Origin: Candidatus Bathyarchaeota archaeon
GTDB lineage: Archaea > Thermoproteota > Bathyarchaeia > Bathyarchaeales > Bathycorpusculaceae
NCBI GenBank assembly: GCA_963767735.1
Contig: CAVYES010000008.1
Coordinates: 192,001 to 256,000, forward strand
Length of the DNA: 64,000 bases
Reading direction: 5' to 3'
Positions within the stretch are counted from its first letter, which is position 1, and each line of letters opens with the position of its first letter. A model generated the notes under the pieces. That model did no database searches. It was not told the DNA's origin and saw only the letters and a program-made list of their open reading frames with translations. The position numbers and the translations under genes were made by a program. Below, in pieces: positions 1,441 to 54,570 of the stretch.

Positions 1441-2109
1441 ATTATATGACTCTTCAACCTTTTACCAGAAACTACCAAGACAACAGTACTGACGCGGGAT
1501 TTCAATTTACGTTTTTATGCGACATCTGTGGCGACGGCTATAAAACAGCCTTCATCCAATCAAAGACCTACAAAAAAGCAGGTCTGTGGAAAGGCTTTGG
1601 CAGTGTAGCCCAAATCGGTGGACAATTAACAGGTCACAGTAGTGGATACAGTGTTGGACAGGGCGCCGACGTGATGGGGCAACGTTTTCAGGGCATGACC
1701 CCTGAATGGCACAAAGAACACGAAGCTGCTTTTGATACTGCTCAGAACGAGGCCAAAGGCCACTTCTTCCGATGCCCAAGATGCCACAAATACGTTTGTG
1801 AAAACGACTGGAACGAACAAGAAGGTCTCTGCATCAATGACGCTCCTCGCGAAAGCACCGAAGTCGCCGCAGCCCGCAATGAAAAAATGGTAGCAGATAT
1901 CAAACAAAAAGCCGAAACCACACAGGTTTTCACAGGCGAAATAAGCAGCCGACAAACAATATGCCCAGTATGCGGAAAACCAGCCGGACAAGGCAAATTC
2001 TGCAACAAACTGCGGAGCGCCCCTAGGCTTAAAAGTCTGTCCCAAATGCGGAGCAAAAAATCCTGCTGGCACAAGCTTTTGCGGTGAATGCGGAACCAAA
2101 CTTACCTAA
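1437..2109 (+). CDS. Zinc-ribbon domain protein (frameshift near 2008 hides the C-terminal DZR)
   Basis: CDIC, CPRC..C, CPVC; the alternate frame continues CGAPLGLKVCPKCGAKNPAGTSFCGECGTKLT*. Confidence 0.75.
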
Positions 2110-2343
2110 CTGCAAACAACTCAAATCGCTCATCATTTACTCCAAAACCTAACAATGATACCGAAACCAACTCTTTTGCATCGCAAAGAAGAACCCAAAA
2201 CAAAAACAAATTTCGCTTTTTTCTTTTTTTAAGGCTTTTTTTGATAATTCTAGACCATTTGAAGCGATCAACTCGATAATTGAGTAACCTGTTTATTCGT
2301 AGAAACGAGTGAAAATCAGGCCATAATTTACAAAAGGGGCAAA

Positions 2344-2389
2344 GCGTGGGATGTGGGAGTTGAACCGACGAAGGCCTGCGCCAAAGGAT
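2344..2389 (-). mobile_element. Degenerate tRNA-Leu-like 3' half (att-site remnant)
   Basis: Reverse complement reads atcctttggcgcaggccttcgtcggttcaactcccacatcccacgc: long variable arm plus T-arm; no 5' half present. Confidence 0.65.
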
Positions 2390-2469
2390 TTCCTATCAAA
2401 TTGTGGTAATTGATTATTAGTAAGAATTGTTAGTAAATACCATGTGCCTAAGGGGTAAGGAAAAAAGAT

Positions 2470-2721
2470 ATGAGGCCAGTTACTGTTACGAAGCATTCGC
2501 AAGTTACAATACCCAAAGAAATACGTGAAGAACTGGGTATAACGGAAGGAGATAAGCTGAAGATGAGAATAGTGGAAGGCAACAAAATAATGATTGAAAA
2601 AGCAAGCGAAGAAGCGTGGAAAGACTGCACTGACTTTTTACCTGACGATTTCGAAAAGGTGCTAGCATCCACACGCGTTGACTCAACAAGCAGATTCAAG
2701 CACCTTGGGCTGGTTCCCTGA
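2470..2721 (+). CDS. AbrB/MazE/SpoVT family DNA-binding protein (orphan antitoxin-like)
   Basis: VTVTKHSQVTIPKEIREELGITEGDKL signature. Confidence 0.9.
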   Translation: MRPVTVTKHSQVTIPKEIREELGITEGDKLKMRIVEGNKIMIEKASEEAWKDCTDFLPDDFEKVLASTRVDSTSRFKHLGLVP

Positions 2722-3023
2722 ATTGCCACAAAAAGGAAAACCCGCTTTTTGCTTCGTCCCTTTCACCAAAATGAACCGCCGTTTGCAGGCCCTAAAAGTT
2801 TAGTGGCGCAGCGTTGGAACTTGAACCCCGAGGCAGTAGAGACATCGGCTCGCAAAACCCTATTTTTTCAGGCTAGTCATATTAAATTATTAAATAGTTT
2901 TTAATCTCGTTGACATAAAGATATCGAAAGCAGGATACTAGAAACAAGGGGTTGGGTCTTTGCTTCAATCAAAAGCAACAAAATTGATAGCACGCAACAG
3001 ATGACAAGCAGGGTGAATTAGAA

Positions 3024-3917
3024 ATGCACACTTTAGAATTGAATAATGTGTCTTCCGGCTACAATAAACAAGTCGTTTTACACGATATCAGCTTTAAGCT
3101 TCAAGAACCCTCAATCTACGTTGTTTTAGGGCCAAACGGCGCAGGCAAAACAACGCTGTTTAGAACAATCGCGGGCATACTAGAGCCATTCAGCGGAAAA
3201 ATTCTTCTCGACGACCAAAACACAACCACATCAGGCAAGACGCGCTCAAAAATAAGCTATCTCTCACAGTACAACGCAATGCCTGAAGAAATGACCGTGT
3301 TTAACGCGCTAAAATTTTACTCAGATATCGAAGGCGGAGACCCCGATAAGGTGATTGACCTGCTTGATCTTGGCCAACTAAAAAACAAGAGGTTTTCTGA
3401 CCTTTCACAAGGACAAAAAAAGAGAGCAGCAATCGCAAAGGTGTTCCTTCACGAAAGTGATTTGTACTTGCTGGATGAACCCACAGCGAATTTAGACCCA
3501 GCAGTTTCAAAAGAAATCCGAGATATCATCCTAAAACTAAGCAAAGACAAAATGATCCTGTACTCTTCCCACAACCTTTATGAAGCAACTGATATTGGGA
3601 CCTACCTTATTTTAATCAAAAATGGCTCAGTGACATTGTTTGATAAAATCTCAAACATTAAACCCAAACAGTACCGAGTAGGCATCAAAGCCTCAACGGA
3701 CATATCAAAAATCGTAGATGCCCACCGTGAGGGTGACTATTTTGTTTTGAATGTGTCTAGCCCTGAGGAAGCAGGGCTTGCTTTGAAGAAATTGGTTGAA
3801 AAGGGCGTTTTGGTTACTGAAATGCGTCAGCTTGATAATCCATTGCAGGAGCTTTTTGAGTCGTCAAATGGAAAGGTGGAAAAAACACAAAAGGAGCCTC
3901 AGCAAGTTGCCAAATAG
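3024..3917 (+). CDS. ABC transporter ATP-binding protein (exporter type)
   Basis: Walker A GPNGAGKTT, signature LSQGQKKR, Walker B LLDEPT, H-loop SSH. Confidence 0.95.
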   Translation: MHTLELNNVSSGYNKQVVLHDISFKLQEPSIYVVLGPNGAGKTTLFRTIAGILEPFSGKILLDDQNTTTSGKTRSKISYLSQYNAMPEEMTVFNALKFYSDIEGGDPDKVIDLLDLGQLKNKRFSDLSQGQKKRAAIAKVFLHESDLYLLDEPTANLDPAVSKEIRDIILKLSKDKMILYSSHNLYEATDIGTYLILIKNGSVTLFDKISNIKPKQYRVGIKASTDISKIVDAHREGDYFVLNVSSPEEAGLALKKLVEKGVLVTEMRQLDNPLQELFESSNGKVEKTQKEPQQVAK

Positions 3918-4581
3918 TGCCGTAATTTTTGCTAAACGAAGCCTCAGTTTGAGCAAAATATATTCGGCTGTAGGGATTTTTTTTGCTGCCTTCGGAGTCT
4001 TTGTATCAATTGCATTCATCCTTGCTGGGCAAAGTGTGCCTGTAGCGTACTTTCTTTTTCCCTCCGCGTTTATGGCTTTTGGGATGCTTATGTTCTCTAC
4101 ATCTGTTATACTGCTTTACGTCTATGACAAAAATAACGGAGTTTTGGAGTATCTACTTTCTCTTGGATGGAGTCAAAGCGACATCTTTAAGTGCTACTTG
4201 AAATCTGCCCTTTTAATTTCGCTAACCCTTTTCACTGCTGAATTTGTTGCCAATGTTGTAGCAATTGTGATTACAGGGGCACTTCAAGGTTTAGTGACGT
4301 TAGCTTTTACCGCCATGCTGGGTTTTTCAGCCATTTCTTTAATTACAATTGCCATGATGGCTTTCAGCTCATTACAGAAGCAGAGAGTAGGTGCTAATAG
4401 TCCTCTTGCTTTAACCATTGGCGTCCCGATTATCATTCCTACATTTTACATCCCGTTTTTTTTACCATTTTATGTCGCCATTTTAGTTGAGTTATTTATT
4501 ATCGCGCTTGCCGGTGGGCTGTCAATCGTATTGTTGATTTTGTCAAGCAGACTAATCAGAAGGGAAAAAATGCTTCCATAA
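3796..4581 (+). CDS. ABC-2-type transporter permease
   Basis: About six hydrophobic helices, DKNNGVLEYLLS motif, overlaps the ATPase gene; true start probably ~3868. Confidence 0.8.
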   Translation: MKRAFWLLKCVSLIIHCRSFLSRQMERWKKHKRSLSKLPNSAVIFAKRSLSLSKIYSAVGIFFAAFGVFVSIAFILAGQSVPVAYFLFPSAFMAFGMLMFSTSVILLYVYDKNNGVLEYLLSLGWSQSDIFKCYLKSALLISLTLFTAEFVANVVAIVITGALQGLVTLAFTAMLGFSAISLITIAMMAFSSLQKQRVGANSPLALTIGVPIIIPTFYIPFFLPFYVAILVELFIIALAGGLSIVLLILSSRLIRREKMLP

Positions 4582-4676
4582 ATGCCGAGCAGTTTGCAAG
4601 TTTTTTGAGCGCGAAGCCTAAGCGGCGAATCCAATTACATTTCAAAGGCAGTTATAACCCATCTCTTCAAATAGAC

Positions 4677-4901
4677 TTACTCAAATTCGGACCGGGGCTT
4701 TTCTGTTTGCTTGATAATGTATTGGATTACAAAAACGGTGACTTCTTTGTGATGCGGCACCCATGTGGTTAAAATATGCTGACGTACTGTTTTCTTGAAT
4801 GTAGTATGCTTACTGGATCTCACTTCTTGAAAGCCGTTAGACCTTAAAATTTCAATTACTTTTCGCTGAGGTAATGGTGGAAGCTTTGCCATGCATAACA
4901 C
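4677..4901 (-). CDS. hicA: HicA family toxin
   Basis: LPQRKVIEILRSNGFQEVRSSKHTTFKK...VPHH; directly downstream of HicB. Confidence 0.8.
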   Translation of the reverse strand: MLCMAKLPPLPQRKVIEILRSNGFQEVRSSKHTTFKKTVRQHILTTWVPHHKEVTVFVIQYIIKQTEKPRSEFE

Positions 4902-5130
4902 TCTTTGGAACCTTGACAGGAATGTTCGTTAGAGAAAAAGACATCAAATCATCCAGCGAAGGCTTTGCAGTGTCGGGGTCACTTAAGTATTCGTCTATGA
5001 GTTCAGTCATGTTTTCTTTTACCTCTTTTTCTGTTTTTCCTTGCGTAGCAATGTCCAAAATGGGGCAAGAGGCTACAAACCATTTTCCCTCTTTTGTTAT
5101 TAGAATTGGAAGAGGTATCTTCTCACACAT
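4852..5130 (-). CDS. hicB: HicB family antitoxin
   Basis: EGKWFVASCPILDIATQGKTEKEVKENMTELI. Confidence 0.85.
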   Translation of the reverse strand: MCEKIPLPILITKEGKWFVASCPILDIATQGKTEKEVKENMTELIDEYLSDPDTAKPSLDDLMSFSLTNIPVKVPKSVMHGKASTITSAKSN

Positions 5131-5280
5131 AATCGGTAGAATAGCCCTTTTTGCCTTATAAGGATTTTATCAAATCCAAAAGCAAAAGAAGTCATCTGGC
5201 GACATCTTTGCGACAGTTAATCAACACATATTGGCTAAAATACCCCCAATCGCGCCCTAATCGGCAAAAGGATGTAGTAA

Positions 5281-5305
5281 TGGTGCAGGGATGGGATTTG
5301 AACCC
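5281..5305 (-). mobile_element. tRNA 3'-end fragment (Leu-like) with CCA; att remnant
   Basis: Reverse complement gggttcaaatcccatccctgcacca = T-arm + acceptor strand + CCA. Confidence 0.75.
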
Positions 5306-5416
5306 CACAAACAAAAGTGTACTTTTCGCGATCCCCATTTTTGCGTTATTTCAGTTTCACCTGAGAGCCATAGCGAAAGACGATTTTTTTGAGCCTCAAA
5401 CCTATGCCGGGTTGAT

Positions 5417-6004
5417 TTAGTTTATTCTATTATATCTCAATTCAACAGCACCTGAATTGAACGTCTTTGTGCCGATTAGTTTCAGTTTCTGCCTCACATC
5501 AACGTCTTTTAGCAAAAGTTTTCCTTTGCCTAAAATCACAGGATGAACAACAATCAAGTACTCGTCAATCAACCCCAATTTCGCAAACGTCTGCGCCACC
5601 GTTGCTCCTCCCACCACGATCATGTTTTTTCCTGGTTGCTGCTTTAGTTTCTGGATTTCTTCGGCTATGTTGTTTTTAATCAGAGTGGAGTTTTTCCATT
5701 CTACGCCGTCCAGCGTGCTTGAGACTACAATTTTTCTGGTTTCGTCCGCATACCGTGAAAACTTTTTGTCGCTCTCAGAACTCTGAGGGTTACTTGCCGC
5801 TGCAGGCCAATATTTCTCCCATATTTGATAAGTGCTCCGTCCAAGAATAACAGTGTCCGCAAGATCGAGATTTTTCCACATTTCATCATGAAGGTCTTTC
5901 CACATTTTTTCCTTACCGAAAGGTGGAAGATAATCCATTTCATCGTTCGGTCCAGTGGAGAAACCGTCAAGCGTCATTTGCATTGACAAGATTACTTTTC
6001 TCAA
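5417..6004 (-). CDS. Dihydrofolate reductase family / RibD C-terminal domain protein
   Basis: MQMTLDGF, ILGRSTY, GGATVAQTF..GLIDEY.I.VHPVILGKG. Confidence 0.9.
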   Translation of the reverse strand: MRKVILSMQMTLDGFSTGPNDEMDYLPPFGKEKMWKDLHDEMWKNLDLADTVILGRSTYQIWEKYWPAAASNPQSSESDKKFSRYADETRKIVVSSTLDGVEWKNSTLIKNNIAEEIQKLKQQPGKNMIVVGGATVAQTFAKLGLIDEYLIVVHPVILGKGKLLLKDVDVRQKLKLIGTKTFNSGAVELRYNRIN

Positions 6005-6463
6005 AAAATCACCAAATTAAACCCACCAAATATCCTATAAAAATGTTTTTAGCTTGTCTCGCAGACACTTTTCATCTTGTTTTTCTGGCAGTCAAAGCTC
6101 ATCAAGTTTTATACCGTTAAGTCGATAATTCAGTTGCATGCCAAAGAAAGTATTACTTGAAGTTACCGACGAAACCTATGAGCAACTGGAAAGATTCTCT
6201 GCTTTTTACATTGGCTTCGTCAAATTCTATAGCAATATCTACACAGGTCTATGAAGTTAACTTAGCGGTGAAATGACGCTTTTTTGGAAAAATCATTGTA
6301 ATATATACAGAAAAATTTCATTTTTATTATATTTTTCTGAATGACTTTATTTGAAAAATACGAAATTGTTTTAAGTATCTTGAAACATATTTGTACCATA
6401 TATTGTAGCATATTAAGAAACATTAAAAAGCAAAATATGCATGTGTTTAACGGTGAAAAATTG

Positions 6464-6814
6464 ATGGCATCACGGTCAGAGGTCGAAAGCTGTTTTTCTG
6501 TCTTAGCAACAGGATTAGCGGGGCTAAGATTGCTAAAGACGTACGGCTTGAAGTCTAAAGAGTTGGATTTCTTTATTAATGCTATGTCTACAGAGGAGCA
6601 AGTCAAAATTTGTGCTTTTGCGCCATCACCATTACGCGAACAATACAAAGCATCGATCTCAGAAGCACAGACAAAGGTAAAGCAAGACATCGAAAGCCTG
6701 TCTGTTGAAGAGCCATCTGATAAAGCGATAGATGACACAATTAAAGATACAAAACAATTGTACGGTATATTGGCTGAGCTTCATAGAACAGCAGTCTCAG
6801 GTCTAGTCATCTAA
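6464..6814 (+). CDS. Hypothetical helical protein (likely start MASRSEVE)
   Basis: Open frame 6341-6814 whose upstream part is AT-rich and promoter-like; 11 bp before the 474-aa gene. Confidence 0.55.
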   Translation: MASRSEVESCFSVLATGLAGLRLLKTYGLKSKELDFFINAMSTEEQVKICAFAPSPLREQYKASISEAQTKVKQDIESLSVEEPSDKAIDDTIKDTKQLYGILAELHRTAVSGLVI

Positions 6815-6825
6815 AGGCCAATCAA

Positions 6826-8250
6826 TTGCAACTAACCGCTTTAATTCAACATATTGACGGATTAATAGCCGAAACCGATGACCAAATAAAGAAACTGAAA
6901 GATATTCCTTTTTCAAAAATTGCAGATATACTAGCTATAGCTATAACGAACTACAAAAATGGTCTAACTATAATTAACGACTGCTTGGATAATTCACTCA
7001 CAAAAAAAGCTTTAGCTATTTCAAAAATACAAACAAAAAACGGCGAATACCTGAGTGCAGATCAGATAATTTATGATATTTACCGAGAAACCGTGGGTTC
7101 AGCGTATAGCACGGCCGAGGGGTTTAATGGATCAATTGCCTTGCTAGTCGAAAGCTGTATCCCTTGGGAACTTTATTACTGGTCACTAGAAATTCCTCAA
7201 GGTTTTGGCGTAAGCAAACCTTTTGTTTTTCGACAAGGTGTACAGTTTATCAGTAAAAGTTTCAAAGATGAAATCATTAAACCGCTAGATCCGTTGATTG
7301 CAATAGCTAAAGATCCCAACATAAAAGGCTCTTTGATGCAAATCCAACCAGTTGACATTTTAGCAAAACACAAAATTGATGAGGGGTACGTCATAGATTG
7401 TATTAGGAGCGAAGCAGCAAATCCTATAATGTGGCCAATTCTATGCCATGAAATGTTTGAAGCGGTAGACAAGGATTTAGGCTTGACAGGTCAAAGTATA
7501 ATGAATAAATTTGAAATTTTTGTTAAGACGCAAACTGAGTCAATGCCAAGCATTAATGATGAGAAGTTAGCAAATGAAAATTGGCTTTTGGAAATTCTTA
7601 TGGATTTTCTAGCAATCACCAGTTTTGGCCCGATGTATGCTAAATCGCTTTTAGACTATTGCCAACGATCTCCTTATTATCCAACTCCTGAGCATCCTGA
7701 GATGTGCTACAGAATTTATTCCGTTTACTTGTACCTCACTTCGCCTGCATTGTCTCAAAGCGATATTTTCAAAAGATGCCAAGAGGTCGCGAAAGCTGAG
7801 ATACAGCCTGAGGTAAGCAGATATGAAGACGAAGGAAATCTCGATTCCGAAAATGAACGATCTCTTTCCGAACTTTTTAAGTTAATGACTAAATTCAGGC
7901 ATACAATTCCGGTTCCGACTTTTTTGCAAATCCTTGATAACTACATTGTTCAATCCCAGCCCTCGGGAGCAACTTTAAAGTCATTGCTAAAAAAAGGGAC
8001 CCCTGACTTTGAAAACAGACCAAAGTTCATACCCTTCAAGGACCCGTTGCTTTCTTTCGATAACATACAGAACGCTATTTTTCAAGGGGTATCTTTAGCG
8101 ATTCATCCTGATATTCTTCTTAATGTAGTAATCGCCAATGCTGATGATTACAACAAAGATGAGGACTATGATATCATTGTGGACAGCATCAAAAAATGGA
8201 AAATTAAAGAGGTCTGGAATTCATCTATTAGCCAGATCAAAAAGCTATAG
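6826..8250 (+). CDS. Hypothetical protein with degenerate zincin/M48-like metallopeptidase motifs
   Basis: PILCHEMFE, EILMDFLA...GPMY and EHPEMCYRI resemble the HExxH / ExxxD / HP....RI pattern. Confidence 0.55.
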   Translation: MQLTALIQHIDGLIAETDDQIKKLKDIPFSKIADILAIAITNYKNGLTIINDCLDNSLTKKALAISKIQTKNGEYLSADQIIYDIYRETVGSAYSTAEGFNGSIALLVESCIPWELYYWSLEIPQGFGVSKPFVFRQGVQFISKSFKDEIIKPLDPLIAIAKDPNIKGSLMQIQPVDILAKHKIDEGYVIDCIRSEAANPIMWPILCHEMFEAVDKDLGLTGQSIMNKFEIFVKTQTESMPSINDEKLANENWLLEILMDFLAITSFGPMYAKSLLDYCQRSPYYPTPEHPEMCYRIYSVYLYLTSPALSQSDIFKRCQEVAKAEIQPEVSRYEDEGNLDSENERSLSELFKLMTKFRHTIPVPTFLQILDNYIVQSQPSGATLKSLLKKGTPDFENRPKFIPFKDPLLSFDNIQNAIFQGVSLAIHPDILLNVVIANADDYNKDEDYDIIVDSIKKWKIKEVWNSSISQIKKL

Positions 8251-8847
8251 TTTTTTGTTTACAATTGTCAGAATGCCCGTCGTGAACTCCTTATCTGATC
8301 GTAGCATAGTGTTTAGCGTTTTTGCGTACTTCTTATCTTTTTTTGCTTGATAGGGAACAACAACGTTATCGTCCAAGGTTTCAAGTGTTAATGCCGCAAT
8401 CCGCTGTAAAGGGTGCAAGGCAACTGGCATCTTGCCAAGATTCGTAAGCTCACAGGTTACTTGACCCGTATATCCTGGGTCTATTCCTCCAGCTGTTGCA
8501 TGAATAATTAAGCCTAGCCGCCCCAAAGAACTTCTGCCATCTAATCTTCCCAGAATATGAGAGGGCAACCTAATTCGTTCAAATAGAGGCGCAATTGCAA
8601 AGTCTCCCGGTTGAAGAATAAATCCACGTTCGTTGAAACCAATGTTCCTTTCGTCGCCGTAATCTGGCTGCTCATCTCGCATAGGGTCATAATACGGTTG
8701 CTGTGAATGCTTTATTAAATAAACGCGATTTGCAAGTCTCAAGTCAATTTTTGCGCCTTGAATCTGATTTAAGTCTAATATTGGGTGAATAATAATTTCC
8801 CGTTTCATGAGGCTTTGGAAGATGTGCTCATCAGTAAGGACTGTCAT
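8245..8847 (-). CDS. dcd: dCTP deaminase (trimeric dUTPase-like fold)
   Basis: IDLRL, GRSSLGRLGLIIHATAGGIDPGYTGQVTCELTN. Confidence 0.92.
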   Translation of the reverse strand: MTVLTDEHIFQSLMKREIIIHPILDLNQIQGAKIDLRLANRVYLIKHSQQPYYDPMRDEQPDYGDERNIGFNERGFILQPGDFAIAPLFERIRLPSHILGRLDGRSSLGRLGLIIHATAGGIDPGYTGQVTCELTNLGKMPVALHPLQRIAALTLETLDDNVVVPYQAKKDKKYAKTLNTMLRSDKEFTTGILTIVNKKL

Positions 8848-9279
8848 CTATGCCTTTCTTCCTTTGAGAGCGCCATGTTTGACTTCTCCTCTATCATATT
8901 CCCAGAAATGCAGGCCCTTCGCAGTCTTAAAAACATAACAGCTATAGTCTTTTTTGTCTTCAGATTCAATTTCCAGCAAAGGAGAAAGTCCTGCAAGCAT
9001 TTCTTTAGCCAACCTATGCCTTGTCTTGAAATCGACATATCCGTTTTTGGCATGTATTTTCTTAAAAAGATCGGATGCTACCGGAATTAATCCGGCGAGT
9101 GAAATCATTATTTGGACTGCAACGTCAGGGGGGACAGGGGCAAACTTGTTTTCTTTAATTAGCTTAAATTCGATCGCTGAATCTCTGACTGTTTTAAGAA
9201 TATCCATGGAATCCTTTTGGGTCGTAATAACAACTAGTTCAAAGTCAGTACCAGTCATGGTTAATTCTGATAGAGGCAT
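8848..9279 (-). CDS. Hypothetical protein, directly abutting dcd
   Basis: Stop codon abuts the dcd ATG; one hydrophobic segment. Confidence 0.6.
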   Translation of the reverse strand: MPLSELTMTGTDFELVVITTQKDSMDILKTVRDSAIEFKLIKENKFAPVPPDVAVQIMISLAGLIPVASDLFKKIHAKNGYVDFKTRHRLAKEMLAGLSPLLEIESEDKKDYSCYVFKTAKGLHFWEYDRGEVKHGALKGRKA

Positions 9280-9522
9280 GCCGATTTAAGGTTTGCTTCT
9301 TTAGCCTCTCATAAAAAACCACTAAAAATATAATCGCTCGCGTTAACTCAACGAAAAAAGAAAGGCGTAAAACGATTACATGCACGGTCTCATAAGGATT
9401 TATCTTGGGGAGATTCACTTTGGGGGCACGGTAAATTAACTAACTAACAGATAAAAGTAGGGCAATAAAAAGGGGAGAATTGTTGCGGAGAAACATTAGG
9501 AGGTAATATCGCCACTTTCTCT

Positions 9523-9546
9523 GGGGTTTGAATCCTTCCCCGGCAC
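9523..9546 (+). mobile_element. Degenerate tRNA-Ser-like 3' fragment
   Basis: ggggtttgaatccttccccggcac is a near copy of 16000-16026. Confidence 0.6.
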
Positions 9547-9739
9547 TTTTATTTGAGCTTATTTTATCAAAATGGAACTTATTCAGGGCTAATCTGAGTC
9601 AGCATCTAAAAGTAACTTCAATACGGCGAGATTTTTACCGCTAATGTGTGTGCCCTAAAATGGGTTCAAGTGCTAAATAATTTGTAACCTTATACGGGAT
9701 TTAGCCAGAACTCGAAATGAGACGTGACGCTCACTTACA

Positions 9740-9761
9740 AGTGGGTCGAGGGGATTTGAAC
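9740..9761 (-). mobile_element. tRNA T-arm/acceptor fragment
   Basis: Reverse complement gttcaaatcccctcgacccact. Confidence 0.55.
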
Positions 9762-9778
9762 AGTAATGGGTTAGCGCG

Positions 9779-12700
9779 TTACCTGAAAGTTGACAGGAGC
9801 GATTTTCTTTGCAGCTTATTAGTATTGGAGGAGGAAATCGGCTCTGATGCTGGAAGGGCCAGAGGCTGACTCTTCGAGCGCTTCCTCAGGACTGCCACGG
9901 CACCGATGGTGACGCCCGCTACGCCTATTCCGATTCCTGCGTAAGCGTAGTCGTATGCTCTGTTCACGCTGGCCTTGAGACTGCTGATTTGGTTTTGGAG
10001 AGCAGCTTGGGAAGCGTTTAGGCTTTTCCCGAGACTACTAAGCTGGTTTTGCTGAGATGTCTCAGATGAATTGAGGCTGTTTAGGCTTCCCCCCAAACTG
10101 TTGGTCTGGTTTTGCACAGAGGCTTGAGATGACTTTACGCTGTTCAGGCTACTTGTAAGACTATTGGTCTGACTTTGCAGAGACTGAATGGAGCTCTGGG
10201 AGTTTTGTAGGCTGGAAGTTTCTGAGTTTAATTGGTTCTGGAAGTACATTGTCGAGTTGGCGCTGGAGCTGACTCCGTCTGTTTGGGTGGCGACTATCAG
10301 TAGCGAGTAGCCGCCGTCGGCATAGTTGGCGGTGTTTATGGTGAAGCTGAGCGTTCCGTTGTTGCTGAAAGTTTGGGTTGGCTGGTTGTTGAGGTAAACG
10401 ACGATGGAGTTAATGCTGTTTCCTGAGACGGTTACGCTTCCGACCAGGTTACCGGTATATTTTCCTCCGTTGGTGGGCGAAGAAATCTGAATCGTAGGTG
10501 GAAGCGGGGAGATACTCTGATAGCTTGACGATGTCAACGAAAGGTTCGAGTTAACAAGAGCAATTGAGTTTAGATCAGTGTTGACTAAGTTAATGCTGCT
10601 GTTTGAAGCGACAATTTCCCCACCGTGCACGCCCTCAAGCGTTAGGTTGGCGCCGTTTGCAAATATAGTCCCGTTTACAAACGAGTCTGAGATGACGGTT
10701 GTGCCTGACGTGAACCAGTTTGATCCCATGAAGATATCGTTAGACAGGTTCGCCGATTTTGTCACGTTGACTCCGCTCAAAGCTAGCCCCGAACTCTGCT
10801 GGAACAAGGTGATTTGTTGGTTTGACAAGTACACGTAGGGCTGTATAGAGAAGGCTTGCTGGGCGGAGAGCGCGGCGGTTGTGGGGAAACCGTCGTAGGA
10901 GATGCCTGTCACGTAGACGTCGTAAGGACCAGCATAATTGAACGAGTTATCATTTATTGGTGATAGAACGCCGGCATTGTATGGTGAAGGCAGCAAGACA
11001 TTGGCGGTCCACCTGTTCAGCGTCGGACTATACAGCAATGGCGTCAACTCAAAACCCTGATACTCCGCATACATTATGGCTGTGTAGTCATTCTGCAGTT
11101 CCTGCGGATAAATAACCGCCGAGTATTCACCCTGCGTAACTTCTTGACCATTCGGATAATGAATATCAGCAGTTATCTGCGCCGTTTGCCCCATATACAA
11201 AGTTGACGGCGAAAGCGTTATCTCAGGAGTTATTGCGCCACTCGAAACAAGGATTTGACCGTAAAAGGCGCCATTGAGGGTGTACCCAAGAGTCACAGAG
11301 CCATAGTTTGCCTGAAGCAAAATCGTGTACAACCCAGGAGCCGCGTTAGACGGGACCGTGAGCAAGCCGACCATTTCTGAATTTTGCAAAAACAGGCTCG
11401 TGCTCGCAACCGTTTGACCCGACGGAGTTAATAGAAAGGCATTGACGTTTGAGCCGCTGGCCACATCGGAACCGATTGTTTCGCCAGTATCATACGATGT
11501 CTCTTTTGCAACGTTCAATGGGGCAATGGGAGAGACAGAGAGAGTAAGTGATTGTCCAGGGGCTATCGCGCCAGGTTCCACTGCCACCTCAGGGAGGACG
11601 ACGGCGGTTTGCAGGTAAATCCCATTGGTAAACGGTAGAAATCCATACGTGCCCCCCTGAAGCATCAAATCGATGGGGCCTGCTGGATATGGGGATGTTA
11701 GCGTCGCTTCAGTTACGTTTACTCCAGATACAAGGGTAGGTTGCAGCGTAACCGTGCCTTGAGAGCTGTAGAGATTATTGAGAATCGAATAGGAATTCAC
11801 CTGCATTGTGAGCGGTTGCAACGGGGCTGGATTGCCGTAGAGGTCTGTAGCGGTGACAACCACTTTTAAGCCTCCCGCTGTTGTCCATGGGTCTGTTGGA
11901 GTTGGACTAGTGAAGGTTGCGAGGTAACCAGCAAAAATTTCGGCGGAACCCGCCCCTGAAATTCCTGCTGATGTGCCGTTGACGTTGACGTATGCAACAC
12001 CGGACTGCTGCCCCATCACGAAAGAAGCACTAAAAGCCCCGCTTGCACTGTCGAAATTCATAGGAATGGATAAGGAAGCCCCATTAAGCGTCACAAGGCT
12101 GGCTGTAAAGCTTCCAGTAGTTATAGGCGTGAAGAAAGCTCCATTATAGATAGATGCTGTTACCTCAACAGTTTGACCCGAAGTGAATTCAAGTTGAGAT
12201 CCGCCTGTGGAGTTAGCGACTCCGACTAAAACGATTAGGCTGGACTGTGGATTTTGAGCGTTGTAGAGGGAAGCAATTTCGCCGATATTGGGACTACCCC
12301 ATCCTGTAGCAAGATTATAACCATAAGATGAAGTCCACGGGATAGTGTTGCCAAATGTGATAGGAGTGAAAGCTTTGGCGTAAGTAGCAGCGCTATTGCC
12401 CAGGCTATAAAGGAACGGATTGATGAGACCAAGCGGACCTCCCGCAGACTCAGCTACCAGTGTGAGTAGCCCCGAGAGAAGCTGAACAGATTCCGACGTG
12501 CCGCCCACAGCCATAACTGAACCCGAATCCACGATGAAAGTGGCTGGATTAACACCAGCCTGCAAAGAAAGATCTGGTTCCAATCTTCCGTTCGGATAAG
12601 AGGGAGGTGTCTGCTGACTTTGCTGATACCACGGCTTAGGCTCCACAAAACTTACCCCGCCTCCGCCTCCACCAGAATTAACAAAGTTCGGGACGTATCC

Positions 12701-13951
12701 GCCGTTCGACCACGCCGTTTGAGCGACCGTTTCGGTCCCGTTTGGTTGAGTGTAGAAGTAAGTTTGAGTTCCTCCCACAGCAGTAACATATGGTGAATTA
12801 TCTGGGTTTCCTAAGTTGCCTGCCGGGCCTGAACTGTAGCCACTTCCTCCTCCATCACCTGTGGAGCTTAGGAAAGTGATTCCCTCAAGCGAGCCCAACA
12901 TGAAGTACTGGTCGGGGAGAAACATGTTGAAATAAAACAGTGGTCCGCCAATGACAGAGTCCTCCCATTCGGGGGCAATAGAAAAGCTCATTGAAAGTGT
13001 AGTGACACTATCGTCACCTACTATTTGTGCAATATCATAGGCAAAACTTGGCGCGCCGGTCGTCACGTACATATCAATGGCGGCTTTAGGAGCCATTGCA
13101 TGCGATATCTCAACATCAAGAGATACTTCGGTGCTCCAGCCCTCCGAAACGCCAAGGTTAGGATTGTAGGGCACAATAGGTGTCACAGTCAAGCTCGGAT
13201 TTGAGAACCCGAATTGTGCATCGAAAAGCTGCAAATCTTGGGTGATGGTCGGAGAGCCAAAAAATTCAAGCAGACCAATAGTCTGGCCTTGGCCTTGGAA
13301 GCCCTGTGCATAAAGAGAGGTTGCGTTATAAACGCTCTGAAGAGCCTTCGCAGATGACGCTCCTTCCGAGAAGGTCACGTTTGCATTCGTTTGAGACGCT
13401 GCAGAACTTGCTACCTGTGGTTGAACCATAAGGCTTGTCGCGTTCGATGCAACAAAATAAGCTCCTTCAAACAAGGAATTCCCGCTCGTTACATAATAAG
13501 AGTCCGTGCCATTCGAGTAAATGTTCACGCTGGCACCAAAGTACTGATTAACCTGGGCAACAGTAGCCTGAACAATTATCATGGAATCCATAGATTGCCT
13601 AACAACCTGCAATCCGACCCCCTGAAGATAAGCAAGCATCGAATTATACGCGTCCACAGGCAAGAATTCCTGTTGAATCTGAGTACTGGTCAAAAATTGC
13701 CTAAACAAAGGCGACGAGGGGTTCGAAACTTGCTCCACCATAGAACTGAGAAGCCCCACATTTCTCAAAGGAATCGCAATGTTAACAAGCACAGAGAGAT
13801 CACTCGGCGCTTGACCCTGAAGAACATAGCCTAAAAGGGGCTGAGCAACATTGGAACTGGAATCAGCAACATAGAAACTGGCTCCCAAAACGCTGCTGAC
13901 CGACGAGACGACCAGCAAAATCAAAACTAAACTAACGATTAAGCCCTTCAC
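9779..13951 (-). CDS. Membrane-anchored S53 (sedolisin/kumamolisin) protease with prodomain
   Basis: Signal peptide; pro-kumamolisin domain (VSNPSSPLFRQFLT); EVSLD, STGDGG, GGTS catalytic motifs; GYNLATGWGSPN Ca site; long beta-rich region, S/Q/N coiled coil, C-terminal TM + KRSK. Confidence 0.92.
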   Translation of the reverse strand: MKGLIVSLVLILLVVSSVSSVLGASFYVADSSSNVAQPLLGYVLQGQAPSDLSVLVNIAIPLRNVGLLSSMVEQVSNPSSPLFRQFLTSTQIQQEFLPVDAYNSMLAYLQGVGLQVVRQSMDSMIIVQATVAQVNQYFGASVNIYSNGTDSYYVTSGNSLFEGAYFVASNATSLMVQPQVASSAASQTNANVTFSEGASSAKALQSVYNATSLYAQGFQGQGQTIGLLEFFGSPTITQDLQLFDAQFGFSNPSLTVTPIVPYNPNLGVSEGWSTEVSLDVEISHAMAPKAAIDMYVTTGAPSFAYDIAQIVGDDSVTTLSMSFSIAPEWEDSVIGGPLFYFNMFLPDQYFMLGSLEGITFLSSTGDGGGSGYSSGPAGNLGNPDNSPYVTAVGGTQTYFYTQPNGTETVAQTAWSNGGYVPNFVNSGGGGGGVSFVEPKPWYQQSQQTPPSYPNGRLEPDLSLQAGVNPATFIVDSGSVMAVGGTSESVQLLSGLLTLVAESAGGPLGLINPFLYSLGNSAATYAKAFTPITFGNTIPWTSSYGYNLATGWGSPNIGEIASLYNAQNPQSSLIVLVGVANSTGGSQLEFTSGQTVEVTASIYNGAFFTPITTGSFTASLVTLNGASLSIPMNFDSASGAFSASFVMGQQSGVAYVNVNGTSAGISGAGSAEIFAGYLATFTSPTPTDPWTTAGGLKVVVTATDLYGNPAPLQPLTMQVNSYSILNNLYSSQGTVTLQPTLVSGVNVTEATLTSPYPAGPIDLMLQGGTYGFLPFTNGIYLQTAVVLPEVAVEPGAIAPGQSLTLSVSPIAPLNVAKETSYDTGETIGSDVASGSNVNAFLLTPSGQTVASTSLFLQNSEMVGLLTVPSNAAPGLYTILLQANYGSVTLGYTLNGAFYGQILVSSGAITPEITLSPSTLYMGQTAQITADIHYPNGQEVTQGEYSAVIYPQELQNDYTAIMYAEYQGFELTPLLYSPTLNRWTANVLLPSPYNAGVLSPINDNSFNYAGPYDVYVTGISYDGFPTTAALSAQQAFSIQPYVYLSNQQITLFQQSSGLALSGVNVTKSANLSNDIFMGSNWFTSGTTVISDSFVNGTIFANGANLTLEGVHGGEIVASNSSINLVNTDLNSIALVNSNLSLTSSSYQSISPLPPTIQISSPTNGGKYTGNLVGSVTVSGNSINSIVVYLNNQPTQTFSNNGTLSFTINTANYADGGYSLLIVATQTDGVSSSANSTMYFQNQLNSETSSLQNSQSSIQSLQSQTNSLTSSLNSVKSSQASVQNQTNSLGGSLNSLNSSETSQQNQLSSLGKSLNASQAALQNQISSLKASVNRAYDYAYAGIGIGVAGVTIGAVAVLRKRSKSQPLALPASEPISSSNTNKLQRKSLLSTFR

Positions 13952-14721
13952 GAAAACACTTCCAGAATAAAAAAATCTTAATTTTCATAAACTCGCATCA
14001 TCCACCTTACTATCATCAGAAATTTAACTTCACGTGGGTCACACGCCCGCGCATTCCGCAACAAAAAGACTAGCTATTCTTGGTTATCTATTTTGAAAGT
14101 AATCTAATATATGCTTTTGTGACTACAAAGCGAAGTCTCAAACTTTTGCGCGCTTATACGGTGAAAGGCAAATATGCAAAAGCAACCATTACCCAATACC
14201 TTAAAGCTGTTCAGACTAGCATCACCACAATTAATTATTTTTTTCTTGATCACTGCGACACACCGACGCCTGCAAACAGGTTCTTGCATACAATTACTAA
14301 ACCACAAAACATAGGGAACCATGCCGATATAGGCAACAACGCCTATAACAGATCTAACCAAGGGCTAGAAGGGGATTATCTTGAAGATTACCCTAGGAAT
14401 AATCTACGTTAAGCATTCCCCACCACCTCCTTCGGAGCTGAATGGATAGTAAACCCTTTCTTTAGATTAATCATCATTACTTTCAATTATTTTTTTCTTA
14501 ATTACTCCAATGCCTATTCCCATAATAGGCGGAGACCACTTTTGTTGCCTAGCAGCCATTGCCAAAGTAACAACGCAGTAATCATGATAGCCTTCGGGCT
14601 ATGTTTTGTAAAAGTTCCTTAGCGTGGGAGTTGAAGTTGGCGTTGGAGCGGTTGTGGTTGCTGTTATGCAGTCACAGAGTCTTAAAGGCATGATTTTACA
14701 AAAATAACAACGGTGTTTTAA

Positions 14722-15006
14722 TTGGAAAAAAGCATGATGAAATATCAAGTTTTAATCAAAACGATTTCAGGAAAGGGCGGCGAGTTCTGGGAAGCGTTCA
14801 AAAAAATGCCTACCGAGCCAATGAAAGGAGTAATGGTGGAGTCTTCCTGGAGCTTATATGGATACTGGGATTTCGTTATTTTCTTCAAAGCCGACAGCAA
14901 TGAAAACAGCCTTCACTTCATCGGAGAGGTCTTACGAGCAATGCCGGGCATCGCCGATACCAGCACGTCACCGATGACCGTTCTCAAAGAACACAAAAAG
15001 CTATAG
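14722..15006 (+). CDS. GYD/Lrp-AsnC ligand-binding-like small alpha+beta barrel protein
   Basis: SLYGYWDFVIFFKAD...GIADTST pattern. Confidence 0.6.
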   Translation: MEKSMMKYQVLIKTISGKGGEFWEAFKKMPTEPMKGVMVESSWSLYGYWDFVIFFKADSNENSLHFIGEVLRAMPGIADTSTSPMTVLKEHKKL

Positions 15007-15224
15007 ACAACTGTATCGTAACTATTTCGTCCCTTCTTTTTCTTTCCAAGCATCTTGAAATGTGGTTGAAGGTCCATCCTCTGGCAAATTGAGTAGGGCA
15101 TGGATTTTGAAGCCTCATTGCTGTAGAGGCACTGCCCATCAATTCCTCTTTACGTGAGGGACTAACTCATTTAAATTCCCGTAAACATCTGGAATTGTGT
15201 GAATTCACTTTTTGAGAGTTTGAT

Positions 15225-15321
15225 TGGCGAGTTAATGGTGAAGGTTGTTCACTTTTCCAACTGGCTTTCGACGGTGATTTTTCCCCAGGGCATCTACTAT
15301 CCACTTACAAATAGCCAAACC
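15225..15321 (-). pseudogene. Histidine kinase HATPase_c C-terminal remnant
   Basis: Translates GLAICKWIVDALG/KITVESQLEK*TTFT (G2 box) with an indel and an internal stop. Confidence 0.7.
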
Positions 15322-15376
15322 CCTTCCTGGGCGTCGATACAAATTACTTGGGGTCTCTTAAAGAAAAGAGAGTGTA

Positions 15377-15709
15377 CTATTGTGTTTTGAGTCCGCTAAG
15401 TCTCTTGTTGAGTTCATCAAAGATCAGTTGCTTTTTCTCTTCGCTTAAGTTGAAGATAACCTTGTTAGCCATTTCATTTGAAATTGTAAAAATATAGTTT
15501 AATTTTATGACGCTGTCTTTTATGGCGCCTTCATTTTTGGTTAGGGGTATTCCCTTCATCTTAAGATTGCTTGTTATGCCCGCTATCACAACATTGCCAA
15601 GTTCTTCGAACAAAACCACGGCGGGTCTAACTTTCACTTCATCGGCATCAGTGAACTGCACTCTGGCAAGGATAACATCGCCAGGCTTAAGCATCTTCCC
15701 AAGCCTCAT
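15377..15709 (-). CDS. PemK/MazF family toxin
   Basis: PGDVILARVQFTD...KVRPAVVL...AGITSN. Confidence 0.88.
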   Translation of the reverse strand: MRLGKMLKPGDVILARVQFTDADEVKVRPAVVLFEELGNVVIAGITSNLKMKGIPLTKNEGAIKDSVIKLNYIFTISNEMANKVIFNLSEEKKQLIFDELNKRLSGLKTQ

Positions 15710-15929
15710 CTTCCTCGTTATCCCATAATTCTTTCATTTTCGCCTGCTGAATCCTATGGAGAAACTCATCGTATTGCCTTCTCTTGCCCGATTCCTTTGC
15801 AGTTTTTATTAAATTTAAAATGGTTTCGTTGTAGGTTTCTCTTGGGTATTTCCTGATATTTTTGAGTTCCTTAACTACCGATTTCTTAAGCTGTATTGAG
15901 GTAACATCTTCGTTTGTCATATAAGTCAC
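15687..15929 (-). CDS. Cognate antitoxin (RHH-like N-terminus, acidic tail)
   Basis: TSIQLKKSVVKEL..RETYNETI; ELWDNEEDEAWE tail; overlaps the toxin start. Confidence 0.75.
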   Translation of the reverse strand: MTYMTNEDVTSIQLKKSVVKELKNIRKYPRETYNETILNLIKTAKESGKRRQYDEFLHRIQQAKMKELWDNEEDEAWEDA

Positions 15930-15999
15930 TATAACTAACTATAGCTCATTATAATAAATTTATTGCCCCAAGCATTAAAGTTAGTGTTTCGTGCTCGCA

Positions 16000-16337
16000 G
16001 GGGTTCGAATCCCTTCCCCGGCGCCATCAACAAAGTAGGGTCCTTATTTTTGAGAACGCTCGCCTTACGGTCGACCAACCAAATTCGTAAATTGTTATTT
16101 TAGGGCAGCGTAAATTTAATATTGCTATAAGGATAAAGAGAAGCTATAAGACCCCCCCTCGGGGTCTGTCTCTGTCTGTCTATGTGACTCACTATGCCGC
16201 TGTTTGAAACAAAAAAGAGCAATATACTGCAAGACCTTTCCGTACTAGATACACAATCGGATCCACCAGACGGCATACTGCTCTGCCGCGAAACGCTCCT
16301 GACATTCATGGCTTCCAACGTCTCTAACATCTTTTAC
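16000..16337 (+). repeat. ~335-bp repeat, copy A, starting with a tRNA-Ser 3' end (16000-16026)
   Basis: ggggttcgaatcccttccccggcgcca plus ~310 bp matching the reverse complement of 54918-55252 (roughly 90% by eye). Confidence 0.95.
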
Positions 16338-16396
16338 TCGGTCTGTATCAAAGCTTATAGGGTCAACGAGATGTTTTCTATTGTAAGTGTCGGTTA

Positions 16397-16620
16397 TGGT
16401 AAAAATCAAGGGAAAAAAATTCACAGTAATCTTAAGAGAGGAGCTTGAAAGTGGCTATTCAGCTCAATGCCTGGAACTTCCTGGAGCGTTAAGCGAAGGC
16501 GACAGCCGCAAGGAAGCACTTGCCAACATTAAAGAAGCCATCGAAGGTTACTTGGAAGTTTTCCCAGAAGAAGTTTACCTGCTTAAACGCAAAAGAGAGT
16601 TCGTGGAAATAACTGTCTGA
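16397..16620 (+). CDS. hicB: HicB family antitoxin (short)
   Basis: GYSAQCLELPGALSEGDSRKEALANIKEAIEGYL. Confidence 0.9.
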
Positions 16621-16833
16621 AAAGCTGCCGTCTGTCTCTTGGCGGGAAATCATAAAGCTCTCGCTAAAGCCAAATTTACCGTTGCCGGCCAGAAGGGGAG
16701 CCACATATTTTTAGCTGATGGAAAACACAAACTCACCGTTCCACGCCATGACTCAGTCAAAAAAGGAACGCTTCTAGCCATAATACAACAAGCCGGGTTA
16801 ACAAAGGATGAATTTATTGAATTGCTCAAATGA
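16613..16833 (+). CDS. hicA: HicA family toxin (N-terminal frameshift)
   Basis: LPSVSWREI.../GQKGSHIFL...LTVPRHDSVKKGTLLAIIQQAGLT. Confidence 0.85.
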
Positions 16834-16841
16834 AAGGCGGT

Positions 16842-16879
16842 TGGAGGCTTCGGCGAGATTTGGACCCGCCACCATTACC
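16842..16879 (-). mobile_element. Degenerate tRNA 3' fragment at the accessory/core boundary
   Basis: Reverse complement ggtaatggtggcgggtccaaatctcgccgaagcctcca (T-arm + CCA). Confidence 0.55.
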
Positions 16880-17040
16880 TAACAAAGGGCATCCCCCCAA
16901 ATTGGTCAAAATTGATCAATACCACGGAAAAAGTTATGTTGAAGCAGCCCAATCACAAAAAAAGGAAAAACTGTAGAAATTAGAGAATTCTCCACTGAAA
17001 GGGTTAATATAGAGTTAAGTCACGCTATTTTACAAGAGCT

Positions 17041-17892
17041 GTGGGATTTGTGTTCAAAAGTGTGGGATTAGTCGCCCGCTACGATAAGAAACCAGCTTTG
17101 AAACTTACAGAAGAGTTGGCGGAGTATCTTTCAAAGAAAGGATTGAAGGTTTACATAGAAGATACACTGGCAGATAAAGTCACCACCACGCAGCAAGAGA
17201 TGGTTCCCCTCTCGCAGATGAAAACAGACTTCTTGATTACAATCGGCGGCGACGGAACAATATTGCGAACGTGCATAGGCCTCGCTAAGCCTGAACCGCC
17301 AATTTTAGCTATAAACATGGGACTCCGGGGGTTTTTGACTGAAGCGGAGCCGAAAAACGCTTTTGAAGCGGTAAATAAAATTCTTAGCGGCGATTACAAG
17401 ATAGAAAAATGTGCAAAGCTATCTGTGGTTGCGGGCGAAGATAGATTGCCTGATGCCTTAAATGACGTTGTTATTTCTGCGGGTGAACCTTCAAAAATAC
17501 TTTATACTCGGATATGTAAGGATGGCAAGCCGATTCTTAATTGCCAATCAGACGGTTTGATTGTGGCCACCGAAACGGGTTCTACCGGTTACTCTTTTTC
17601 TGCAGGCGGACCAGTTTTAGACCCCGCGCTGGGTGCTTTTGTTTTAACGCCTATTTGCTCGTTAACCGTGTTCCACCCGCTTGTTTTCCCCGCAAACTCC
17701 ACCATCACCTTCAACGTAATTAGGGCGGAGAAAATCCTTGTTCTCATAGATGGAAAATACCATAAGCAAGTAAACTGCAAGGAGCCAACCTTAGAAATCA
17801 AAGTATCCAAAAACGTAACTTCCTTCATAAGGTTTGAAACCGACTTTTACGACCGACTGAAAAGCCGGCTACTTTTTAAGGGAACAGAATGA
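17041..17892 (+). CDS. nadK: NAD kinase
   Basis: GGDGT, LND, DGLIVATETGSTGYSFSAGGP. Confidence 0.95.
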   Translation: MGFVFKSVGLVARYDKKPALKLTEELAEYLSKKGLKVYIEDTLADKVTTTQQEMVPLSQMKTDFLITIGGDGTILRTCIGLAKPEPPILAINMGLRGFLTEAEPKNAFEAVNKILSGDYKIEKCAKLSVVAGEDRLPDALNDVVISAGEPSKILYTRICKDGKPILNCQSDGLIVATETGSTGYSFSAGGPVLDPALGAFVLTPICSLTVFHPLVFPANSTITFNVIRAEKILVLIDGKYHKQVNCKEPTLEIKVSKNVTSFIRFETDFYDRLKSRLLFKGTE

Positions 17893-19780: not shown

Positions 19781-19853
19781 TTGGAAATGACTCCGGTTAA
19801 GCGTCTAGGAAAGATGCAATATTAACCTTTACGCACGGAGAATGTGAGGCTGG

Positions 19854-50092: not shown

Positions 50093-50112
50093 GAAGAAAA
50101 GAGGAATCTGCA

Positions 50113-51333: not shown

Positions 51334-51346
51334 AGGAGAAGATAGA

Positions 51347-52663: not shown

Positions 52664-52664
52664 G

Positions 52665-54521: not shown

Positions 54522-54543
54522 ACTTCTCTCTAAGAATCTGAAA

Positions 54544-54570
54544 GCGGTTTTTTCTTGACCGCCATTTTTT
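54544..54570 (+). terminator. Hairpin + T-tract after the acl operon
   Basis: gcggt...accgc stem followed by a T run. Confidence 0.55.

Follow-up and report, generated by a model that had tools for sequence, protein, structure and literature searches.

How does a stretch of archaeal chromosome without a tRNA gene come to hold a row of tRNA 3' ends that belong to different amino acids? The question is raised by 64,000 nucleotides of a Candidatus Bathyarchaeota archaeon (contig CAVYES010000008.1, positions 192,001 to 256,000; G000:C8:192001-256000), which we call the window and in whose numbering unprefixed coordinates are given. The genome measures 3.04 Mb and is 95% complete. A sequence-only reading of the window had listed seven tRNA T-arm and acceptor fragments, near 2344, 2801, 5281, 9523, 9740, 16000 and 16842, and had taken the small gene modules among them for an integron-like cassette array mixed by recombination of relaxed specificity. 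We compared the region with 120 genomes of the genus (handles beginning with G), 117 of which matched the junction between the eIF5A and NAD kinase genes at which the fragments lie. The array was probably built by accretion of integrase-less, tRNA-type cassettes at orphan attachment (att) sites inside a decayed, promoter-targeted tyrosine-integrase element.

Fragments of at least three tRNA types are genuine att sites

Each fragment was scored by its best local alignment to the genome's own tRNA 3' ends, with 400 reversed 100-bp windows as the null (maximum 15; 5% reach 13 and 1% reach 14). Five of the seven listed fragments score 18-44. The first is a Leu(TAA) fragment on the minus strand (2353-2389, score 31). 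A Leu(CAG/TAG)-type site, also on the minus strand (5279-5312, score 23 to Leu(CAG)), opens a HicBA unit, and homology to G097 stops within it, at 5304. On the plus strand, a decayed Ser(CGA) site preceded by an element-end motif (9470-9544; tRNA part 9518-9544, score 18) forms the left border of an S53 protease block; its position is that of an intact tRNA-Ser(CGA) gene in G077, homology to which starts at 9523. A second plus-strand Ser(CGA) site (15988-16032, score 44) is identical over 15988-16031 (44/44), agrees at 45 of 45 positions with the host tRNA end, and coincides at its end, 16032, with the point where G077 homology stops. The last, a minus-strand Thr(GGT) site (16840-16897, score 40), consists of a tRNA 3' half (16888-16840) and an element arm that occurs without tRNA sequence in G075 and G020.

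The two remaining fragments fared differently. The one at 2801 (2799-2851, minus strand; Leu-like, isotype uncertain) scores 13 alone, but its G077 orthologue scores 20 and closes an equivalent AbrB unit, so we regard it as a decayed real site that closed an AbrB(-PIN) unit. The fragment at 9740 scores 14, a chance-level value, and was rejected as a boundary because it lies inside an S53 block that is continuous in G077; homology crosses it, and the G077 version is less tRNA-like. One site had been missed, a strongly decayed plus-strand Ser(CGA) copy at 15312-15336 that forms the left border of a MazEF unit; not significant alone, it aligns with intact tRNA-Ser(CGA) ends in G131 and G094 and with att copies in G098 and G123. 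Two further sites lie left of the window, at C8:191495-191533 and C8:191310-191351. Hence the sites do occur in both orientations and in at least three amino-acid types, as had been proposed. It is also correct that the window holds neither an intact tRNA nor an integrase: contig C8 has no PF00589 match, and there is no tRNA gene within 55 kb of the array.

The same scan over 32 kb of conserved flank gave four matches, each scoring 14, and genome-wide 35 matches reached at least 20, as compared with none in reversed and none in shuffled DNA. About six of these 35 are missed tRNA genes or pseudogenes. With these six and a relative's Ser(GCT) added as queries there were 39 non-gene matches of at least 20, of which 13 lie downstream of a cognate tRNA gene and 26 elsewhere, and about nine integrase-less units stand behind tRNAs in this genome. 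Four of the 39 fall in the island described below against 0.27 expected, a figure biased by the choice of the region for its fragments. ARAGORN with a lowered threshold returned noise only, and Rfam over 1-20000 gave no family match of weight. Elsewhere in the genome, mixed-type clusters lie away from cognate genes at C6:337478-365841 (Arg, Cys, Leu and Ser, on one strand) and C5:390070-397248 (Thr and Arg). The start of contig C4 (C4:1-9000) holds three Ser(GCT)-type att copies; the assembly yielded no tRNA-Ser(GCT) gene. At C4:238406-238425 (Arg-TCG) and C5:53400-53427 (Glu-TTC) lie copies of tRNA 5' ends, which suggest elements that target the 5' side, and one integrase ends 128 bp upstream of tRNA-Arg(TCG).

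Comparison with relatives supports the view that the fragments are att sites bounding small units without an integrase: modules are gained or lost exactly at 2353, 9523, 16032 and 16888. The earlier proposal that fragments stand at module borders does not hold for every border: at 4625-4660, 14159 and 16334 no fragment is found.

A Leu site split between two reciprocal hybrids

The sequence-only reading had further suggested that sites of different isotypes recombined at the T arm. This is borne out by the first site. On the minus strand, 2300-2398 begins with the 3' half and T arm of Leu(TAA) (2389-2353) and continues as a Ser(GCT)-type acceptor strand with its own arm. Up to the word TCCCAC it agrees with Leu(TAA) at 34 of 37 positions and with Ser(GCT) at 25 of 37; past that word it agrees with Leu at only 4 of 10, as against 9 of 10 with the Ser(GCT)-type att of G003 (25 of 30 with the arm). 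Its reciprocal counterpart, 3.0 kb off and outside the window to the left, is at C8:191351-191290, where a cassette-end motif ending in TCCCAC is followed by a decayed Leu(TAA) strand whose arm is the one found behind the Leu(TAA) att before HEPN-MNT in G078. Judged from these alignments, a single Leu site that has been split at one word and has retained both halves is the trace that conservative site-specific integration would be expected to leave.

Such hybrids are rare. A scan of this genome found one, the 2344 site, among nine scorable non-gene sites and none among 37 intact genes, and the reversed genome yielded no sites. At the loci of other genomes, intact genes included, three of 44 distinct sites were hybrid (Cys|Leu, Arg|Leu and Thr|Thr), the first two in G124 and G098. 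End motifs are likewise shared among types. For example, one motif has nine copies and none in reversed DNA, five joined to Ser(GCT)-type strands and four to Leu-type strands; a second has a tRNA end behind 9 of 32 matches, compared with 7 of 1500 random stretches.

The array sits in an island between eIF5A and NAD kinase

What the sequence-only reading had overlooked was the container, an element inserted at one intergenic word. The island measures 20.9 kb (C8:188067-209006) and lies between the divergent genes for eIF5A and NAD kinase. It begins 3.9 kb left of the window, which holds its right 17.0 kb (1-17006), and the first conserved host gene beyond it is NAD kinase (17041-17892, plus strand; PF01513, PF20143). 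Its flanks, C8:188066 and C8:209007, are contiguous in 53 genomes. Among the matches listed for the 117 genomes, these 53 are empty, 35 (this one included) have inserts of 1.2-55 kb and six have spacers below 350 bp; the remaining 23 are split contigs or unlisted rows. The inserts break in one AT-rich word, at the same eight bases. ATATAGA is present at both island ends, and the core is duplicated over 7 bp in this genome, over 14 bp in G047 and over about 26 bp in G003. An empty site in relatives together with a duplicated core is what a tyrosine-integrase element with an intergenic target presents. From its sequence and position, we infer that the AT-rich core is a TATA box shared by eIF5A and NAD kinase.

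The right end (16957-17014, plus strand) consists of an end motif and the duplicated core upstream of NAD kinase and is common to many inserts at the site; it is described by eye, since genome-wide its profiles did no better than the reversed control. In none of 20 relatives opened was an ancestral tRNA gene found upstream of NAD kinase. Of the 34 other inserts, 10 contain pieces of tRNA, which in three cases belong to at least two types, and all seven inserts with Ser(CGA)-type pieces have them pointing towards NAD kinase, as here. The G077 island at the same site is partly homologous (2353-4625, 14449-15091 and 15330-16032), keeps the orders Leu-AbrB-Leu-ABC and MazEF-Ser, and holds different units between its Ser sites. 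By eye, further contents of the G077 island are five toxin-antitoxin-like pairs and, behind them, a cluster like those of type I restriction-modification, radical SAM genes and terminase-like genes. Within our island but left of the window, a block with a 96-codon winged-helix-like open reading frame (ORF; C8:188384-188800) shows 80-93% identity across more than 40 genomes of the genus, far more than core genes do.

Most modules adjoin cognate tRNA sites in some relatives

Units of the array hold one to five genes, and both genes and sites occur on both strands. The gene labels of the sequence-only reading were confirmed by Pfam, except that no family was found for the first HicB, the ABC permease and three ORFs of the dCTP deaminase block. 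Most modules (HicBA, MazEF, AbrB, S53, HEPN-MNT and ABC) adjoin their cognate tRNA or an att copy in some relatives, again without an integrase. Two units here are flanked by att direct repeats without an integrase gene, MazEF (15312/15988) and AbrB (2344/2799), and in relatives the same is true of the second HicBA pair, HEPN-MNT and S53.

From the left, the AbrB/MazE-type antitoxin (2470-2721, plus strand; PF04014) aligns with G077, G018, G023, G002 and G012, and three of five relatives have Leu(TAA) sites on both sides of it. Here it has lost the PIN toxin gene that stands behind it in relatives. The HEPN-MNT pair, left of the window, stands at Leu(TAA) sites in three of four relatives opened. 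An ABC ATPase and putative permease (3024-4581, plus strand; PF00005) stand directly behind an intact tRNA-Ser(GCT) in two of six relatives opened, G003 and G018; a plus-strand Ser(GCT) remnant in the same place before the ABC genes was not found here. The first HicB-like and HicA pair (4677-5130, minus strand; PF07927) has a Leu-strand att in front of it in 2 of 17 loci. A mixed-strand dCTP deaminase block (6341-9279; two unknown ORFs on the plus strand, dcd (TIGR02274) and an unknown ORF on the minus strand) has a distant homologue (26-57%) behind an intact tRNA-Ser(CGA) in G108, in the opposite orientation to its site.

The S53 (kumamolisin-type) protease of 1390 aa (9779-13951, minus strand; PF09286) belongs to a block, 9523-14159, that is 89% identical in G077, where it stands behind an intact tRNA-Ser(CGA). 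The att that closes the block in G077 is missing here, and a closing Ser site predicted near 14450 was not found; two 60% homologues show no site. Repeats at 14210-14275 and 14449-14598 were considered as att sites and rejected, being read by eye as remnants of a membrane-anchor gene family. An Lrp/AsnC-domain gene (14722-15006, plus strand; PF01037 just under cut-off) also occurs in or near inserts at the site in G077, G127 and G072. The MazF/PemK toxin and its antitoxin (15377-15929, minus strand; PF02452) form a unit of about 0.7 kb between direct Ser(CGA) sites, and among 28 MazEF loci a Ser(CGA) site lies beside 11, three of these intact genes, and Cys or Arg sites in three. It is followed by a conserved element arm (16033-16334, plus strand) that has four copies in the genome at 90-93% identity, one of the others lying at 54920-55252. 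Finally, the second HicB and HicA pair (16387-16833, plus strand; PF15919, PF07927) has an intact tRNA-Thr on one side and a Thr repeat on the other in all four loci opened (G002, G019, G003 and G089; anticodons GGT, TGT, CGT and GGT), and 11 of 33 matches to it, among those listed, extend to 16888.

Two kinds of cargo are not at cognate tRNA sites in relatives. One is a RibD-C/DHFR-like passenger gene (5417-6004, minus strand; PF01872). The other is a zinc-ribbon cluster (1-2230, starting at C8:191699, plus strand; Pfam DZR), the cargo of the 3.0-kb insert between the hybrid sites, whose 83-89% identical blocks in G075, G077 and G074 stop about 100 bp short of att sites. This cluster and the HicA of the second pair are frameshifted in the assembly.

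Integrases of one clade end at the same word in relatives

A full integrase occurs in one of the 34 other inserts, that of G047, as a single 426-aa ORF with a zinc-binding N-terminus and intact R-K-H-R-H-Y motifs whose end is about 55 bp from the core. The layout in G057 is the same, an intact integrase beside eIF5A ending next to the AT-rich word; the copy in G132 likewise stops at the core, close to the end of a contig, and that in G117 stops at this word before low-complexity DNA. These four form a clade (SH-aLRT 90, in a quick tree with long branches) nested in a clade of eight, no member of which has a tRNA within 1.5 kb, whereas 15 of 22 other integrase loci end at tRNA-Cys, -Leu, -Arg or -Ala genes. 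The integrases concerned here have an IS1/IS1595-like zinc-binding N-terminus and fall below the cut-off of every NCBIfam family-level model matched. No relative of the G047 enzyme was found in viral contigs by single-protein patterns that reach close relatives only. An SSV-type suicidal integrase was considered and set aside: the G047 gene is one ORF ending before the core, and the PF00589 search gave no integrase pieces in the island. In several inserts integrase 3'-end remnants are visible by eye. The genome itself has 16 PF00589 matches, 11 over cut-off.

In G091, G045, G058, G081 and G076, related integrases stop not at tRNAs but in AT-rich DNA that lies upstream of secE-spt5, of a HIT gene or of rps6e (Pfam). 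For secE, nearly all of the 112 other matched genomes show homology from about 40 bp past the G091 integrase stop, within the promoter region. With one junction of each in view, these may possibly be promoter-targeting lineages.

How the array was probably assembled

To explain the whole, we favour accretion of cassettes at orphan att sites inside a decayed element. An element of the AT-core-targeting integrase clade would have inserted between the divergent genes, as relatives suggest, and later lost its integrase. It would have carried, or received, tRNA-type att copies without a tRNA gene. Units of 0.6-5 kb that normally stack behind tRNA-Leu, -Ser and -Thr, and are found there in relatives, may then have moved as circles excised by integrases acting in trans, usually entering orphan sites of their own type and at least once a site of another. 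In that case a Ser(GCT)-strand circle would have entered the Leu(TAA) site by a crossover in the T stem at TCCCAC, leaving the two reciprocal hybrids 3.0 kb apart; a circle of foreign type could enter since no functional tRNA has to be restored at an orphan site. Deletions, presumably the last step, removed the PIN toxin gene, the closing att of S53 and that of the second HicBA pair. Toxin-antitoxin pairs favour the retention of other islands, and by analogy they likely do so here. The cassettes were presumably mobile at one time and may still be so.

Relaxed specificity, which the sequence-only reading had made the source of the mixture, is not supported as its main source: most modules stand at their own cognate tRNA in relatives, and hybrids number 1 of 9 sites here and 3 of 44 elsewhere. 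We hold more tentatively, as rather less likely than otherwise, a two-tier form of exchange in which the integrase clade, directed at housekeeping-gene promoters and not at tRNAs, founds tRNA-free platforms and orphan tRNA att sites, no longer bound to restore a tRNA, accept circles of any type through a T-stem overlap of 6-7 bases.

A number of observations weigh against assembly by accretion. In other genomes the 180-bp unit that ends the 3.0-kb insert already has a Ser strand at its start and a Leu(GAG)-like strand at its end, so the hybrid pair may be the product of more than one event; the exact order expected before insertion (AbrB, Leu att, HEPN) was found in no genome, the Leu att of G077 being followed by different DNA. 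A tRNA lies near the zinc-ribbon cluster in only 1 of 24 loci, the DHFR-like gene has no tRNA piece within 1.5 kb in nine of nine, the first HicBA pair stands without an att in 15 of 17 loci of relatives and MazEF in 14 of 28, and 24 of the 34 other inserts have no detectable tRNA piece. A strict cassette model is also at odds with the three borders that lack a fragment. As for the enzymes, the remnant at the island's left end is seen by eye and has no tblastn match, and nothing encoded in this genome comes close to the site's integrase clade (best 44%). That the core is a TATA box, moreover, we infer and no more. Of the 20 sequencing runs considered, which contained 7-33% of sampled words, contig sets from four were compared, and in these short, low-depth contigs no circle or excision joint was seen; they gave two joints, 5921-9663 (with a 33-base side) and 14159-14327.

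Alternative explanations

The strongest rival, which we consider unlikely, holds that the att pieces are passengers: blocks of tRNA-linked arrays would have been moved wholesale by homologous or illegitimate recombination, through gene transfer of flanked DNA or paired inversions around a nearby origin, and hybrids would result from deletions across short shared words, with no integrase. Ragged att-free borders at 4625-4660, 14159 and 16334 speak for it, as does cargo, such as the DHFR-like gene, that is not att-bound elsewhere. An 87% identical copy of the 6.8-kb block at 48064-54840 lies directly upstream of NAD kinase in the G020 insert, with no att detected, and in the window a cdc6 gene (32916) stands between the island and the second, inverted Ser arm copy (54920-55252). 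Deletion, however, would not leave both halves of the Leu site split at one word. Nor does this rival sit well with the direct repeats kept at both ends of the MazEF and AbrB units, with the difference by whole units between equivalent Ser sites of G077 and this genome, or with the ancestral orientation kept by all same-contig eIF5A/NAD kinase pairs among the matches listed, which include no inverted intermediate. The block at 48064-54840 itself holds aconitase, isocitrate/isopropylmalate dehydrogenase and ATP-citrate-lyase-like genes in pieces, next to a Ser(CGA) att (55221-55252); near the contig end, 62422-63498 gives a weak terminase large-subunit match (PF03237, below cut-off).

Very improbable, in our judgement, is a dedicated integron-like platform, on which one loose recombinase would read any T-arm motif, perhaps as a folded single strand, and shuffle order and orientation under selection. 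Its appeal lies in the dense toxin-antitoxin pairs (HEPN-MNT, AbrB, two HicBA and MazEF), which recall the cassettes that the passages concerned of a report on archaeal integrons describe along with integron criteria (10.1101/2022.02.06.479319), in end motifs common to several tRNA strands, and in the two other mixed-type clusters of the genome. But a search for IntI (TIGR02249) found nothing over the cut-off of 265 bits in this 95% complete genome (best 42; the G047 enzyme scores 47), and 12 foldings of seven sites gave z of -0.64 to +1.49, with no attC-like single-strand hairpin. The short ORFs, mostly in one orientation, of integrons are likewise not what we find, with genes and sites on both strands. 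Furthermore, cassettes mostly keep their cognate type (hybrids are 4 of the 53 sites scored outside the genome's own genes), integrase clades sort by target, and there is no fixed insertion point, decay being unordered along the island. The integron-like cassette array of the sequence-only reading is thus not upheld.

Chance T-arm look-alikes or a mosaic of assembly artefacts are scarcely credible, for although core genes are frameshifted, near-identical contigs differ by single bases and two of the seven listed fragments score at chance level, the genome-wide counts against reversed and shuffled DNA, the orders of units in the independent genome G077 and a contig of run X5 that spans 16384-17091 refute this for the five strong sites, with no independent read known to bridge the 2353 junction. 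The frameshifts, for example in DNA polymerase DP2 (23141-26552) and AdoHcyase (40503-41760), are probably assembly errors, and single mismatches accordingly weigh little.

Relation to known mobile systems

With integrons and clusters of attC sites lacking integron-integrases (CALINs), as the archaeal integron report presents them in the passages concerned (10.1101/2022.02.06.479319), the array shares a row of short, toxin-antitoxin-rich modules between recombination sites with no recombinase in cis. It differs from them in its multi-gene units and tRNA-end-derived sites, in addition to the features weighed above. Closer are cis-mobilizable elements (CIMEs), which, according to the passages concerned, have lost the integrase and kept attL and attR, take up new elements at a resident att, can excise as composite circles and contain chimeric internal att sites (PMC5704250); integrase-less units flanked by att repeats and accretion at a resident att are common to both. 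A CIME array, however, stands on the end of its target gene with one att type, whereas here no tRNA gene is present, sites of Leu, Ser and Thr type occur together, and it is an intergenic promoter word that the outer shell targets. This comparison covers the att structure.

Tycheposon islands of Prochlorococcus are described, in the parts of the reports concerned, as tandem elements with partial tRNA copies between them, the islands being strewn with integrase fragments and partial tRNAs that record earlier events (10.1101/2020.12.28.424599; additive flexible islands, PMC10872708). Partial tRNA copies lie between successive elements here too, but those islands as a rule adjoin a tRNA gene and tycheposons are defined as integrase-carrying, unlike these units at a non-tRNA site, with no integrase domain on C8 and a full integrase in only one other insert.

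The outer shell rather resembles the intergenic cryptic integrated elements of Thaumarchaeota, for which the passages concerned give att sites as short as 8 bp, 15 of 68 elements intergenic, nesting and re-use of sites by tyrosine recombinases (PMC6563490). Such an element has its cognate integrase next to one att, as in G047 and G057; here it is absent, apart from the remnant seen by eye. The word promoter does not occur in the main text of that report, and its passages concerned describe no integrase-less array of several types. For archaeal tyrosine recombinases in general, the relevant passages of a further report describe tRNA 3' halves as the place of att sites, integrases lost once integration has occurred, integration in tandem and the tolerance of two mismatches by SSV1 (PMC8371274); crossing between tRNAs of different amino acids, seen here, is not among what those passages describe. 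A literature search with little coverage of subscription journals returned no account of such arrays in Bathyarchaeia or of a TATA-targeted integrase.

Implications

The assembly proposed here would account for the way in which a locus free of tRNA genes turns into a sink for accessory genes, in an archaeal lineage that is abundant and mostly uncultured. Specialists would most want to see two parts tested, the reciprocal cross-type hybrid and the promoter-site integrase clade. The former records, at the level of sequence, that att sites of different amino acids have recombined, a step thought to let integrases switch targets, and it provides defined substrates for cross-type recombination. The latter is a candidate clade of integrases inserting into promoter DNA, which would be unusual as a target; the clade might also serve as a genetic tool. 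If the two-tier form of exchange were true, these archaea would possess an active, multi-isotype shuffler of cassettes with toxin-antitoxin and defence cargo, doing the integron's job without integron parts, and their integrases would have a direct route to changing target.

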